From NCBI GenBank assembly GCA_963807165.1, contig CAWDZM010000001.1, forward strand, positions 198,306 through 262,305: a DNA stretch of 64,000 nucleotides, given 5' to 3'. A program made the position numbers and the translations under genes. This DNA is from an uncultured bacterium (lineage in GTDB: Bacteria > Patescibacteriota > Minisyncoccia > UBA6257 > 2-01-FULL-56-20). A model generated the notes under the pieces. That model worked only from the letters and a program-made list of their open reading frames with translations, made no database searches and had not been told where the DNA came from. This document shows positions 5,050 to 60,802 of this stretch, in pieces. The number at the start of each line of letters is the position of its first letter. Position 1 is the stretch's first letter.

Positions 5050-5120
5050 GCTGCGGGACTTGGATTCGAACCAAGATTAACGGATTCAGAGTCCGCGTGC
5101 CTACCATTAGCAGATCCCGC
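5050..5120 (-). tRNA. tRNA-Gln (anticodon CTG)
   Basis: Cloverleaf folded by hand: 7-bp acceptor stem, T-loop TTCGAAT, anticodon loop CTCTGAA. CCA is not encoded. Confidence 0.8.
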
Positions 5121-5123
5121 AAT

Positions 5124-5780
5124 TCAATATTCGCGAAAGGCAATGAGTTTTCTCAATTTCTCGACTTCCGCTTTTCTTCTTATCCGTATTGCATTATTAC
5201 GTACTTCGGGATGAAATTCAAGCCGCCGCAAAATGTCTTCGACGATATTCAATAATGATTGATTCTTATTTGAAAACGAGAAATTATAGGTGCAAGTTGG
5301 TAGGTGAATATTGAGGGAACCCTCTGCCTCGAATAATCCGCGAAGAAATCTTATGGAAAATGATTCGTTCTCGTTTATCCAATCCGGAAGAGTATACGGC
5401 ACATCTTTTCTATTACCGCTCGCTATCCCCAGCCGCTGGGAAATATATTTTTGGTATAAGCTGATCCGAAGCGCATTTACATCTTTTAGTTTGGTAACCG
5501 TAGGTTCGTTGCCAAATAAAATATGAGTTAATCTTGTGTACCGGCGGATAAATTCTGGGTTATTGCTATTGCCCACGATTATTAACCGCTCCGTTCGCGG
5601 GCATGCTTCAATATTTCCATCTCCAAGCACCACCCCGATATATTCAGCAAGATCACCGTTACGGGGAAGATCCGCATAGCGAACGCGGTGGTCGTCGCGC
5701 CATTTTTTAAAATTATCAATTTTTCTCGCCTTCATAGTGCGAGATATTTTTTCTGCGCGAGAAAATTTGTGATTTGGCAT
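5124..5780 (-). CDS. LAGLIDADG homing endonuclease, double-motif. Its stop codon lies 3 nt before the 5' end of tRNA-Gln.
   Basis: Motifs YIGVVLGDGNI and FLRGLFEAEGSL. Confidence 0.8.
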   Translation of the reverse strand: MPNHKFSRAEKISRTMKARKIDNFKKWRDDHRVRYADLPRNGDLAEYIGVVLGDGNIEACPRTERLIIVGNSNNPEFIRRYTRLTHILFGNEPTVTKLKDVNALRISLYQKYISQRLGIASGNRKDVPYTLPDWINENESFSIRFLRGLFEAEGSLNIHLPTCTYNFSFSNKNQSLLNIVEDILRRLEFHPEVRNNAIRIRRKAEVEKLRKLIAFREY

Positions 5781-12339: not shown

Positions 12340-12378
12340 TGGTGCGCTTGGAAAAGTAATGTAGTATAATTTGAAACT

Positions 12379-12840
12379 ATGGAAATCAAAACAACGGTGA
12401 CGGCAGAGATGGTTCAAAAATTGCGCGATGTGACGAGCGCGGGAGTGATGGATTGCCGCAAGGCGCTCATCGAAGCAAACGGCGACGTTGATGCTGCGGT
12501 CAAGATCATTCACGAGAAGGGATTGGCAAAGGTAGAGAAGCGCGCGGATCGCGAGACTGGCGCGGGACTTGTGCAGTCGTATGTTCACAACGAGCGCATC
12601 GGCGTGTTGCTGCGTTTGAGCGCAGAGACCGACTTTGTTGTTCGCTCGGAACCTTTCAAGGCGCTGGCCCACGATCTCGCGATGCATATCGCGGCGGCGG
12701 CACCAAAAAATGTTGAGGAATTGCTTGCACAGCCGTATGTAAAGGATGAATCTCGCACGGTAAAGGATGTGGTAGGCGAGGTCATTGCAAAGGTGGGGGA
12801 GAACGTCGCCGTCGGCGAGTTCTATCGCGTCGAAGCATAA
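12379..12840 (+). CDS. tsf: Elongation factor Ts (short form)
   Basis: EF-Ts UBA-like N-terminus (VTAEMVQKLRDVTSAGVMDCRKAL). TATAAT sits 8 nt upstream of the ATG. Confidence 0.85.
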   Translation: MEIKTTVTAEMVQKLRDVTSAGVMDCRKALIEANGDVDAAVKIIHEKGLAKVEKRADRETGAGLVQSYVHNERIGVLLRLSAETDFVVRSEPFKALAHDLAMHIAAAAPKNVEELLAQPYVKDESRTVKDVVGEVIAKVGENVAVGEFYRVEA

Positions 12841-12864
12841 CGCCCGCACGCACCGCGCATTCAC

Positions 12865-13200
12865 ATGGAATTAATCTTTACTATAATCCTGATGATCTGC
12901 CTGGGCACCGTACTGTACCTGACAGTGCAAGCATTACCTCGCATTGAAGAAGTGCCGGTGGATGAGAAAGGATTCCTCGAGCGCTGGGCGCATTCCGAAA
13001 TGCCGGAAAAGATCGACGCCGCATTCAATAATTTCTTGCTCAAGTTTTTGCGCCGCATAAAAGTGCTCATCTTAAAGTTCGACAACGCGCTTGCGAAGCA
13101 TCTTCAAAAGATCAAACCAGAAGAAGACAAGCGTCCAACCATTGATTTTAAAGAGATTAGCGGGCAGGGGAACAAGGAGGAATCGGACGAAAAAATTTAA
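12865..13200 (+). CDS. Hypothetical small membrane protein
   Basis: N-terminal TM helix, Lys/Glu-rich tail. Confidence 0.35.
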   Translation: MELIFTIILMICLGTVLYLTVQALPRIEEVPVDEKGFLERWAHSEMPEKIDAAFNNFLLKFLRRIKVLILKFDNALAKHLQKIKPEEDKRPTIDFKEISGQGNKEESDEKI

Positions 13201-13235
13201 TGAAGTTTTAATGCGGTTTTTGTTATGGTTATTCC

Positions 13236-14021
13236 ATGGCAAAACGTTGGACTCACAGCGAGGAGCTATCTTACGGTGATCAATTGCGGAAGTTATATCT
13301 ATTGGAAAATAGAACCATTTCTGATATCGGTTTGATATTAAATATATCGCCGAGTGCGGTATACCATCGGCTGATAAGACTAAAAATTCCGGTTGTGCGA
13401 GAGAAAAAAGCTCATTATTTAAATCGTCGATCGGATATTATTATCCCAACGCACCATTCCAACACTCTCGCAGAAATTTTTGGCATCATGTTGGGCGATG
13501 GGAAATTATCTCATTACCAGACTATGGTCACGCTGGGGAATAAGGAGGAAGTATACGCCAAGTATGTCGCCGAACTGCTCATTAAAATTTTTGGGGTTCA
13601 TCCAAAAATAATTACCGACCCTCATAAAGGTTATCGAACGGTTTATTTAGGATCAACGGAAATAGCAGCGTGGTTGGTAAGCGAAGGATTGGTATATAAT
13701 AAAGTTGCGTCACAAGTTGATGTTCCTCTGTGGATACTGGATAAAGAGCAATATATGAAACGATTCGTTCGTGGATTTTTTGATACCGACGAATCGATCT
13801 ATAAATTGAAATATGGCGCACAATTATCTTTTACCAATTATTCCGTCCCGTTGCTTATATCTTTACAATGGCTACTAAGACGGTTAGGATATAGAGTGTC
13901 CGAAATAAGCGGACATCGATTTTATCTTACCAAACAAGGCGAGATAGAAAGATTTTTTAAAGAGATCGGCCCGTGCAACCCAAAACACGTCAAGCGATTT
14001 AATCTCTTTATTAATTCTTAA
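13236..14021 (+). CDS. LAGLIDADG homing endonuclease, double-motif, with an N-terminal HTH. Its stop codon lies 11 nt before tRNA-Tyr.
   Basis: Motifs IFGIMLGDGKL and FVRGFFDTDESI. Paralogous to 5124..5780. Confidence 0.8.
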   Translation: MAKRWTHSEELSYGDQLRKLYLLENRTISDIGLILNISPSAVYHRLIRLKIPVVREKKAHYLNRRSDIIIPTHHSNTLAEIFGIMLGDGKLSHYQTMVTLGNKEEVYAKYVAELLIKIFGVHPKIITDPHKGYRTVYLGSTEIAAWLVSEGLVYNKVASQVDVPLWILDKEQYMKRFVRGFFDTDESIYKLKYGAQLSFTNYSVPLLISLQWLLRRLGYRVSEISGHRFYLTKQGEIERFFKEIGPCNPKHVKRFNLFINS

Positions 14022-14032
14022 TATAAGCTCAT

Positions 14033-14116
14033 GCGTCGGTGGCAGAGCGGTCAAATGCTCGAGACTGTAAATCTCGCGCCCTATGGGCTACGCAGGTTCG
14101 AATCCTGCCCGGCGCA
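14033..14116 (+). tRNA. tRNA-Tyr (anticodon GTA), long variable arm
   Basis: Cloverleaf folded by hand. Anticodon loop CTGTAAA, T-loop TTCGAAT. CCA is not encoded. Confidence 0.85.
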
Positions 14117-14135
14117 CACATAGAAAAGAAAAAAC

Positions 14136-14185
14136 GCCTTGTGGATTTCGTTAAAACGAATATCCAAAAGGCGTTTGAGACTCGC
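14136..14185 (-). terminator. Terminator hairpin aaacgcctt/aaggcgttt with a T-run on the minus strand, downstream of 14219..14464.
   Basis: 9-bp stem seen in the sequence. Confidence 0.35.
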
Positions 14186-56858: not shown

Positions 56859-56909
56859 TGGAAATGATTATAACAGATTGTTTTGGAAGAACAAGGGCTG
56901 CCTCTGTTG

Positions 56910-56990
56910 TGCGCGGGAGAGGATTCGAACCTCCACGCCTTTCGGCACACGCACCTCAAGCGTGCTCGGCTACCATTACGACACCCGCGC
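56910..56990 (-). tRNA. tRNA-Leu (anticodon GAG), long variable arm
   Basis: Cloverleaf folded by hand. Anticodon loop TTGAGGT. CCA is not encoded. Confidence 0.8.
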
Positions 56991-56991
56991 G

Positions 56992-57675
56992 TTATATTGT
57001 CAGCTTCTTATTTATTACCGCCAACGCATCTTCGATCTTTTTGCGCTTTCGGGATAAACAAACCACCTCGGGATTATAATACATCTTTGGTAATAATTTC
57101 AATGACTCAGCCTTCGCATATTTTATTTCATACATGGGAGCCTTCCCCGTCTTTGTAATATGACCCTTTATCGCTAATCTCCGAAGTATTCCCTCCCGTA
57201 TCCATACGATATGTTTTTCGCTGGCAGACATAAAAACCGTGTAAAACATATAGCTTGATCGCCAGCGGGGGTCCCAATATGAGTAGAACGTTCCGTCACC
57301 GTCGAAATGGCCACGAAGGAAATCGAAGAAATATTCGGGTGGAATATCTATACTCCCGATTATTTTCGATTTTTGCGGCATAATGCCGATGCTATTAAGA
57401 AAATTGCAAAATGCGACATCGCCAACCTGAAGATTAAAGTATTTTTTCTCTCTATTCGATCCGCTGCTTTTCATTCCAATTTTGTTCGTAATACCCAAGC
57501 ACCCCATAAAATTTTTCATCTGCTCTTCATCTTTTGAAGTAAAATTTATCATTTTGCGATTGGAGTATATGCATCCATCCGTCACTAAAAGCCCGATTGC
57601 GTAGGCAAATTCGGGCGACCATCGTATTGCGATCTTATGTTGCGGATGCATACCCGACCCTACCACACCGCACAT
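56992..57675 (-). CDS. LAGLIDADG homing endonuclease, double-motif. Its stop codon lies 1 nt before the 5' end of tRNA-Leu.
   Basis: Motifs AIGLLVTDGCI and FLRGHFDGDGTF. Confidence 0.75.
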   Translation of the reverse strand: MCGVVGSGMHPQHKIAIRWSPEFAYAIGLLVTDGCIYSNRKMINFTSKDEEQMKNFMGCLGITNKIGMKSSGSNREKKYFNLQVGDVAFCNFLNSIGIMPQKSKIIGSIDIPPEYFFDFLRGHFDGDGTFYSYWDPRWRSSYMFYTVFMSASEKHIVWIREGILRRLAIKGHITKTGKAPMYEIKYAKAESLKLLPKMYYNPEVVCLSRKRKKIEDALAVINKKLTI

Positions 57676-58940: not shown

Positions 58941-59079
58941 AGTAGTATTCTATCATATTTCTGTAAAGAGCTTTTTAGTTGTCCCAATTACCTCCCTCGC
59001 TTTCGCCTGCGATCGATTCGCTGGCCAAAGAGAAGAAAGTTCGACATATATAGAACCGAAGTTTTATATATTTAGTTTA

Positions 59080-60626
<1,547 letters not shown>

Positions 60627-60802
60627 GATAAAAAGATATCGCCCAAAGTCTCAAAAACTTTGAACGTTGATCCTAATGTTATTGTTGCAACATTTGATTA
60701 CTTCTTAACGTTGCCAAAAAGAATAAATTGGGACAACTAAAAAACTCTCTCTTTTTTCCTTACCATTAAATTGTGAAGGGACAGCTCGATACAACGAGGT
60801 CT

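Follow-up and report, generated by a model that had tools for sequence, protein, structure and literature searches.

What is a gene for a LAGLIDADG endonuclease doing a few nucleotides (nt) in front of a transfer RNA (tRNA) gene? The question is raised by a 64,000-nt stretch of contig CAWDZM010000001.1 (assembly GCA_963807165.1) from an uncultured, ultra-small bacterium of the Patescibacteriota, hereafter called the window, in which an open reading frame (ORF) of 261 amino acids (aa) at 13236-14021 (+), with an ATG start and a TAA stop at 14019-14021, precedes a gene for tRNA-Tyr with the anticodon GTA. An earlier note on this DNA, made from its letters, had described the pair as the second of a series of endonuclease-tRNA modules, with the ORF ending at 14021 and the tRNA starting at 14033. 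The resulting gap of 11 nt (14022-14032, +) was reproduced by the ORF list, by ARAGORN, which calls the tRNA at 14033-14117 (+), and by Rfam, whose model RF00005 matches 14033-14116 with 58.4 bits against a gathering score of 29 and thereby gives the same end as the earlier note, one base short of the ARAGORN call. The tRNA is of class II with a long variable arm, does not encode CCA and is correctly bounded, so that the gap is not the one of more than 50 nt that a mis-bounded tRNA could have hidden. Since the spacer is only 11 nt long, there is no room in it for a separate tRNA promoter. In the reading that we favor, with a probability of roughly two in three, the ORF would encode a free-standing LAGLIDADG homing endonuclease with an N-terminal helix-turn-helix (HTH) domain, which has settled in the 5' leader of tRNA-Tyr and targets endonuclease-free tRNA-Tyr alleles; the gene is probably selfish.

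The same arrangement is found at every tRNA gene of the window, all three being preceded on the same strand by a LAGLIDADG ORF 1-11 nt away. Besides the tyrosine pair (module 2), a 218-aa LAGLIDADG_3 ORF at 5124-5780 (-) is followed after 2 nt by tRNA-Gln(CTG) at 5050-5121 (-; module 1), and a LAGLIDADG_3 ORF at 56992-57675 (-) is followed after 1 nt by tRNA-Leu(GAG) at 56909-56990 (-; module 3). A hidden Markov model of the family matches 3 of the 274 window ORFs of at least 80 codons, and these are exactly the three that abut a tRNA. The pairing in the window is not chance; the repeated pattern proposed by the earlier note stands, and so does its view that the family has diversified, the three endonucleases sharing just 24-26% pairwise identity.

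The linkage to tRNA-Tyr extends far beyond the window. At least 233 homologues were retrieved by a protein search, with 50-75% identity along their whole length, HTH included, and those that carry a name come from Patescibacteria/Paceibacteria; a search for contigs encoding the window's own protein found one 1.1-kilobase (kb) contig. Relatives were present in 155 species in a scan of one genome per species, and ARAGORN was run on 80 loci kept from it. At these species-level Paceibacteria loci the orthologous ORF ends between -14 and +35 of tRNA position +1 for 77 of 79 tRNA-Tyr genes, demonstrating that the adjacency of endonuclease and tRNA-Tyr is conserved across a bacterial class. Moreover, the first in-frame stop lies inside the tRNA gene at 65 of the 77 orthologous loci, where the UAA formed by anticodon-loop nt 35-37 is used in 28 and a TAG in the D-loop in 13. 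The 11-nt gap of the window is thus a minority state, most orthologous ORFs running into the tRNA gene, and the stops inside the tRNA account for the unusual C-termini (...RRSDSGYSRRL, ...KRDAL) with which homologues appear in databases.

Genes are densely packed in Patescibacteria, the gene upstream of the tRNA in the closest endonuclease-free relative (L185) likewise stops only 5 nt short of it, and the candidate phyla radiation (CPR) is known for LAGLIDADG genes in ribosomal RNA (rRNA) introns (PMC11270868) and for group I introns in tRNAs (PMC13011429). It is nonetheless very improbable that the compactness of the genome alone makes the two genes neighbors, or that the tRNA was mis-called or the ORF belongs to a group I intron or an intein. 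The pairing holds for 3/3 tRNAs and 3/3 LAGLIDADG ORFs in the window and for 77/79 tRNA-Tyr genes across species, and this cross-species conservation refutes a chance neighborhood. The tRNA is complete, at the 58.4 bits given above, and uninterrupted, with the ORF lying outside it; no Rfam intron family reaches threshold in the window, and an intein would lack a host protein.

While the linkage is conserved, the presence of the gene is sporadic. A metagenome scan with a tRNA-only pattern retrieved 120 tRNA-Tyr loci, and none of the 109 with enough upstream sequence carried a relative of this endonuclease. Since the pattern also fits 26 of the 77 endonuclease-linked alleles, that of the window included, carriers could have been retrieved. 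One locus (L185), from a close relative in which the product of tsf is 90% and that of p111 85% identical to the window counterpart, is an empty site. In a blastn comparison, window positions 12374-13194 align with L185 6-808 (80%) and 14033-14118 with 814-899 (89.5%), leaving 5 nt (809-813) where the window has 838 nt (13195-14032, +). This segment begins within the last codons of the upstream 111-aa gene and takes in its stop, after which come a 35-nt leader, the endonuclease ORF and the 11-nt spacer. In four other loci (L202-L205) the rpsB-tsf-p111-endonuclease-tRNA context is the same as in the window, and two endonucleases from this group (P0002 and P0003) are 75% identical to that of the window; two further collinear pairs with and without the gene were also found (L023/L201 and L004/L163). 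Presence/absence polymorphism at one defined site among related genomes, a hallmark of mobility, is therefore observed.

The site is also used by other nucleases. In L108, a genome collinear with the window whose rpsB product is 89.5% identical, a 125-aa PD-(D/E)XK ORF (about 203-650, -; PF11645, E 9e-22) ends 3 nt before tRNA-Tyr, and two unrelated nuclease families thus alternate at one site. A nuclease-family ORF ends within -30 to +45 at 11 of 105 unselected tRNA-Tyr genes and at 15 of 137 non-Tyr tRNA genes across all loci, an occupancy of about 10% in general as compared to 3/3 in the window. The families that occupy tRNA 5' sites are LAGLIDADG, HNH, GIY-YIG, PD-(D/E)XK and an unnamed HTH family. 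The PF11645 ORFs of about 125 aa lie 3-8 nt before tRNA-Tyr (L108, L085, L193, L110), HNH ORFs precede tRNA-Leu(TAA) (L002, L010, L013, L039), and GIY-YIG ORFs precede tRNA-Lys, tRNA-Tyr and tRNA-Trp (L021, L137, L188, L078); relative to tRNA +1 the ends of these HNH and GIY-YIG ORFs range from -14 to +44, and several extend into the tRNA gene. The unannotated family, 200-250 aa long with an N-terminal HTH and the motifs YW[CA]EG.K and [FA]NSDP, abuts or overlaps the 5' end of three tRNAs, namely tRNA-Tyr (L098, L164, L149, L189, L198), tRNA-Trp (L027, L047, L080, L122, L124) and tRNA-Lys (L030). It has no Pfam match besides the HTH and no PDB sequence match, and may be a further nuclease family of the same niche.

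The tRNA itself differs between carriers and non-carriers. The window and two endonuclease-positive relatives (L202 and L204) have one identical tRNA-Tyr sequence, whereas five endonuclease-free relatives with 67-90% rpsB identity to the window share another. The two alleles differ only at columns 12, 16, 23-24, 27-29 and 43-44, with the D-stem and anticodon-stem pairs preserved by compensatory changes, and the 3' 41 nt of the tRNA are identical between the window and L185. On a larger scale, a D-arm that we call type A (GAGTGGTCAAT) is present in 54 of 110 endonuclease-free but only 1 of 77 endonuclease-linked tRNA-Tyr genes (Fisher 8e-15, a value that is uncorrected for phylogeny and compares two samples drawn differently). 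Judged from these alignments, the endonuclease-linked tRNA carries replaced D-arm and anticodon-stem sequence. A shift clustered in columns 12-44, together with the depletion of type A, is what would be expected of a resistant allele.

The missing sequence appears to survive upstream of the endonuclease in many relatives. Nt 1-28 of type A tRNA-Tyr were compared with the 160 nt that precede the endonuclease start, and at 39 of 71 loci the match exceeded that of all control windows from the locus, as exemplified by GCGTCaaTGGTAGAGTGGTCAATTGCA in L038 and GCGTCGGTGGCAGAGCGGTCAATTGCAA in L031. In 14 of the 27 strongest cases the homology stops at position 28, which is the junction of D stem and anticodon stem. 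At 32 of 51 loci a -10-like hexamer follows 16-18 nt after the last six bases of the fragment (TTGCAA and variants), and in 22 loci this hexamer ends exactly 6 nt before the ATG, a spacing that would correspond to the promoter geometry of a leaderless messenger RNA (mRNA). In the window, a candidate extended -10 element, TGtTATGGT (13221-13229, +), was read from the sequence; in keeping with the family geometry it likewise ends 6 nt before the ATG, which would imply a leaderless or near-leaderless endonuclease mRNA. A consensus scan was silent on this element because there is no -35 box there.

Comparable remnants were also sought at the three modules of the window and at other tRNAs. When the sequence upstream of each window endonuclease was compared by local alignment with the 5' part of the downstream tRNA, controls were as good in 686/2000 cases for Gln, 1916/2000 for Tyr and 118/2000 for Leu. 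Remnants in the window were therefore rejected, and both the 7-mer TGCGGGA of the Gln module and a shared TTTAATGCGG-like string were treated as chance. This 7-mer equals nt 1-7 of tRNA-Gln and lies 27 nt upstream of the ATG, without statistical support. The first eight codons of the Leu-module ORF (MCGVVGSG), which may be spurious, the true start possibly being the second ATG (57651), weakly resemble nt 1-18 of tRNA-Leu, with 118 of 2000 controls equally good. HNH, LAGLIDADG and HTH-family ORFs that abut other tRNAs were tested for remnants in the same way, with no significant result; this test is weak, as it used each locus's own tRNA and not the endonuclease-free allele.

Taken together, we propose the following course of events for the element. 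The enzyme would cut endonuclease-free type A tRNA-Tyr near the junction of D stem and anticodon stem, at about nt 27/28, and repair from a carrier copy would bring in a cassette in which a short leader and the endonuclease ORF are joined to a new 5' part for the tRNA (nt 1-27). The cassette would restore a complete, cleavage-resistant tRNA downstream, and the old 5' part would stay upstream, where in many relatives its displaced D-arm sequence TTGCAA would form the -35 box of the promoter. A promoter immediately before the ATG would drive a joint transcript of endonuclease and tRNA, and the cut of ribonuclease P (RNase P) at tRNA +1 would free the tRNA, filling the role that splicing has for intron-borne endonucleases. 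With RNase P standing in for splicing, the insertion would cost the host little.

The transcription unit sketched here has a plausible end. A stable hairpin followed by UUUG at 14132-14176 (+; -26.2 kcal/mol, z = -5.74, 0 of 200 shuffles as stable) is terminator-like and could close the endonuclease-tRNA unit. A separate tRNA promoter within the ORF was rejected, the only candidates being 9-of-12 matches, of which 4 were found and 3.2 expected. The best sigma-70-like match of the region, TTCACA-16-TATAAT (11/12) at 12860-12887, overlaps the start of the upstream 111-aa membrane-protein ORF (12865-13200) and could also feed transcription into the endonuclease-tRNA unit.

The proposed course of events requires an active endonuclease, and the protein has the features of one. 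Pfam assigns it to LAGLIDADG_3 (PF14528) in two stretches, with E 1.1e-10 and 42.1 bits against a cut-off of 22.5. The acidic residue that in such enzymes stands at the C-terminal end of each LAGLIDADG motif and binds the metal ions is present, as D88 (codon 13497-13499) in motif 1 (residues 78-90, LAEIFGIMLGDGK, 13467-13505, +) and as D185 (codon 13788-13790) in motif 2 (residues 176-188, RFVRGFFDTDESI, 13761-13799, +). An AlphaFold2 model of the 261-aa protein, built on 30 homologues, had a mean predicted local distance difference test score (pLDDT) of 90.8 and a predicted template-modeling score (pTM) of 0.79. It shows, in order, three N-terminal helices (residues 7-23, 28-35 and 39-48), a linker of about 25 residues and two alpha-beta-beta-alpha-beta-beta-alpha halves. 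The best Foldseek matches in the PDB were the endonuclease domain of the TliVMA intein (E 2.8e-11) and then I-Tsp061I (E 1.5e-9). WhiA (8dy9_I at E 2.5e-7; 3hyi/3hyj), I-DmoI, PI-SceI and PI-PfuI were matched as well; the matches to intein and archaeal intron LAGLIDADG enzymes span E 2.8e-11 to 1e-6, with a probability of 1.00 for I-Tsp061I, I-DmoI and PI-SceI. A PDB profile search gave a match to 7qsu, and NCBIfam has no family for any of the window's three proteins, its matches being only to intein-containing archaeal proteins.

Across the family, G87-D88-G89 and G180-F181-F182-D183-T184-D185 are invariant in the alignment of 30 homologues. In a set of 120 homologues, motif 1 reads [LFM]GDG in 118 and motif 2 reads FFDTDG in 117, FFDSDG in one and FFDTDE in the window protein alone, while the pair of catalytic Asp residues is kept in 118-119. 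Judged by sequence and model, the protein is a two-motif monomeric LAGLIDADG endonuclease with both acidic residues, for which site-specific double-strand cleavage of a long target, of about 20 base pairs, is predicted. The segment that the earlier note had quoted as an HTH, ISDIGLILNISPSAVYHRLIRL (residues 28-49), corresponds to helices 2 and 3 of the model. Pfam HTH families gave sub-threshold matches only (E 0.05-0.13), and the HTH assignment hence comes from the model and from conservation of the family, in which W5, Y21, N25, L35, R45, L49 and I51 of this region are invariant in 30 homologues. The model shows an N-terminal three-helix HTH domain (residues 1-50, 13236-13385, +), and with Pfam, AlphaFold2 and Foldseek in agreement, the earlier naming of the gene as an HTH-LAGLIDADG endonuclease holds.

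The gene has evolved under constraint. Among the window, L202 and L204, the ratio of nonsynonymous to synonymous substitution rates (dN/dS) of the endonuclease is 0.11-0.17 (0.12-0.17 for the window against the other two), as compared to 0.04-0.06 for rpsB, tsf and p111, so that purifying selection on the endonuclease is 2-3 times more relaxed than on housekeeping genes. The synonymous rate (dS) of the endonuclease, 0.7-1.3, is that of the neighboring genes, and this equality together with the low dN/dS indicates vertical descent under purifying selection in the window clade; the element appears to have been inherited vertically for long in this lineage. Elsewhere, pairs of endonucleases that are 72-78% identical sit in flanks without detectable homology, which suggests movement between contexts, rearrangement being another possibility. 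A phage vector was considered and rejected, as a scan of viral contigs gave just three distant matches (21-25% identity) without the HTH.

Such constraint raises the question whether the protein has become a domesticated host factor, for instance a WhiA-like DNA-binding protein that regulates the tRNA-Tyr operon, or a factor that helps with RNA processing or serves as a maturase, kept beside the tRNA whose gene or transcript it acts on. We regard this main rival as unlikely. The purifying selection and vertical descent just described would suit it, as would the strongly conserved HTH domain, the similarity of the fold to WhiA, the name "WhiA" given to several homologues by the Joint Genome Institute (JGI), and the tRNA adjacency kept across a bacterial class. 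WhiA (DUF199), a domesticated LAGLIDADG transcription factor, indeed combines a LAGLIDADG scaffold with an HTH in a structure similar to that of the window protein. WhiA, however, has its HTH at the C-terminus and has lost the catalytic residues, and it is a conserved single-copy housekeeping regulator, whereas the window gene is sporadic, its HTH is N-terminal and its catalytic Asp is invariant. The window gene thus shows neither the catalytic loss nor the C-terminal HTH nor the near-universal single copy of the WhiA type, and its product has no match to the WhiA LAGLIDADG-like domain (PF14527) in Pfam. Furthermore, 109/109 unselected loci lack the gene, as does a relative whose housekeeping proteins are 90% identical, four other nuclease families that are alike in nuclease activity alone use the same position, and a replaced tRNA 5' half is not something that a regulator would cause. 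The retained catalytic residues, the patchy distribution, the varied nuclease families and the allele replacement therefore disfavor a WhiA-like factor.

Several observations nevertheless weigh against a homing element in the window. Vertical descent under purifying selection in the window clade would also fit a gene that is useful to the host. Upstream of the window endonuclease no tRNA fragment is detectable, the type A tRNA-Tyr score being 10 with 176 of 180 controls as good. The tRNA-Tyr of L180 (2398-2482) is 96.6% identical to the endonuclease-linked allele of the window and thus shares it without an endonuclease, a p111-like upstream gene stopping 5 nt before the tRNA; this may reflect a tRNA that was converted without the endonuclease being captured, or an endonuclease gene that was lost. 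The depletion of type A has to be read with the reservations on phylogeny and sampling given above, and cleavage and homing are steps that we infer, the target site being taken from breakpoints and allele differences only. Finally, Glu186 (codon GAA, 13791-13793), beside the catalytic D185, is unique to the window protein, 118 of the 119 other members having Gly, and this G186E change might weaken or alter the activity of the window copy, which is perhaps inactive.

The last point leads to the suggestion that the window gene is a decaying or inactive relic, which once homed, became fixed and is now a non-functional passenger, with G186E as a first inactivating change. The uniqueness of this change among 120 homologues at a near-invariant Gly, the lack of an upstream remnant or homology arm in the window clade and the vertical descent within it are in line with such a history. 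In contrast, the ORF is intact and of full length, every other invariant residue is retained, and the dN/dS of 0.12-0.17 against L202 and L204 is far from 1, making a relic improbable.

For the homing-endonuclease reading, the observations at other loci allow a wider proposal, which we advance tentatively and consider somewhat easier to doubt than to accept. The tRNA 5' leader would be a general, unrecognized niche of homing endonucleases in Patescibacteria, used by at least five nuclease families, in which the Tyr element homes at about nt 27/28 with a replacement 5' part and relies on RNase P in place of splicing, the displaced D-arm acting as -35 box of a leaderless mRNA. Endonuclease synthesis would then compete with tRNA maturation, since most of the ORFs stop inside the tRNA, often at the anticodon-loop UAA, and the RNase P cut would leave a non-stop mRNA.

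Among the closest known systems is SegB, a free-standing GIY-YIG homing endonuclease in the tRNA gene cluster of phage T4, whose recognition site holds the conserved T-psi-C stem-loop motif of tRNAs and whose intronless homing co-converts neighboring tRNA markers (PMC2330249). Both genes encode a free-standing endonuclease and have tRNA genes around or beside them, the window ORF lying outside any intron or intein between the p111 gene and the tRNA, and homing with co-conversion is the mechanism that we propose here. SegB differs in being a GIY-YIG enzyme encoded in a phage genome, its gene not joined to a single tRNA at the 5' end, and it has been described neither with an ORF that overlaps a tRNA nor with a displaced fragment or a replaced 5' half of a tRNA. 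Its target is the T arm, in contrast to the D/anticodon-stem junction suggested for the window endonuclease. I-DmoI, I-Tsp061I, PI-SceI, PI-PfuI and TliVMA have the fold, the motifs and both catalytic acidic residues in common with the window protein, but these archaeal intron and intein enzymes reside within self-splicing elements, lack an N-terminal HTH and are only 14-22% identical to it.

In the CPR, LAGLIDADG endonucleases have been described in insertion sequences or introns of 16S and 23S rRNA (Tsurumaki et al., 2024; PMC11270868). These enzymes belong to the same phylum and superfamily and also target conserved structural RNA genes. They lie, however, inside the rRNA and are removed with the insertion, whereas the window gene is not part of the mature RNA and 5' processing would remove it; tRNA is not mentioned at all in that paper (PMC11270868). 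The group I introns in tRNAs of Patescibacteria carry HNH rather than LAGLIDADG endonucleases (PMC13011429). Their ORFs interrupt the tRNA, usually in the anticodon loop, while the tRNA-Tyr of the window is uninterrupted and no group I intron was found at the Rfam threshold.

There are also mobile elements that repair the gene they enter. Free-standing mitochondrial endonuclease genes bring along a replacement gene end, as in Allomyces atp6, and phages and integrative elements that insert in tRNA genes carry the 3' part of the tRNA. The principle is the same, a cassette regenerating the complete gene and leaving a non-functional fragment. Unlike in these elements, the tRNA part replaced here would be the 5' one, the cassette of about 0.83 kb would hold only the endonuclease and no integrase, and the leftover fragment has apparently been co-opted as a -35 box. 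In the literature on CPR/Patescibacteria endonucleases near tRNA genes we found only rRNA insertions and tRNA introns, and nothing on endonuclease genes in tRNA 5' leaders, ORFs ending inside tRNAs or replacement of tRNA 5' halves. The enzyme class and the general strategy are known; novelty lies, as far as could be determined, in the location, the HTH-LAGLIDADG architecture and the partial-duplication design.

A few further observations concern the surroundings of the other modules. An orthologue of the tRNA-Gln endonuclease in L020 is located 1 nt before tRNA-Gln, and about 14 nt before its ATG the Gln module of the window has a TATATAAT box. The tRNA-Leu(GAG) was reported by ARAGORN and is below the gathering threshold in Rfam. 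The 16S rRNA gene of the window (59074-60631, -) is of normal length (1558 nt), covers the full Rfam model and has neither an insertion sequence nor an adjacent 23S gene, in contrast to the phylum, where rRNA insertions bearing LAGLIDADG genes are common.

Two ways of persisting are generally ascribed to homing endonucleases, residence in self-splicing introns or inteins and, in phages, life as free-standing genes that separate conserved ones. Our results suggest that such elements also land immediately in front of tRNA genes, at a kind of site that had not been described before. If this is true, it would add a third way of sparing the host, which is to sit in the part of the tRNA precursor that RNase P discards while bringing a replacement piece of the tRNA. 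It would also help to explain why the reduced genomes of Patescibacteria hold many LAGLIDADG genes, and it predicts natural enzymes with long recognition sites in tRNA genes. The family further provides cases in which the C-terminus and stop codon of a protein are encoded by the 5' half of a tRNA gene, and for genome annotation it accounts for endonuclease ORFs with odd tails such as ...RRSDSGYSRRL.

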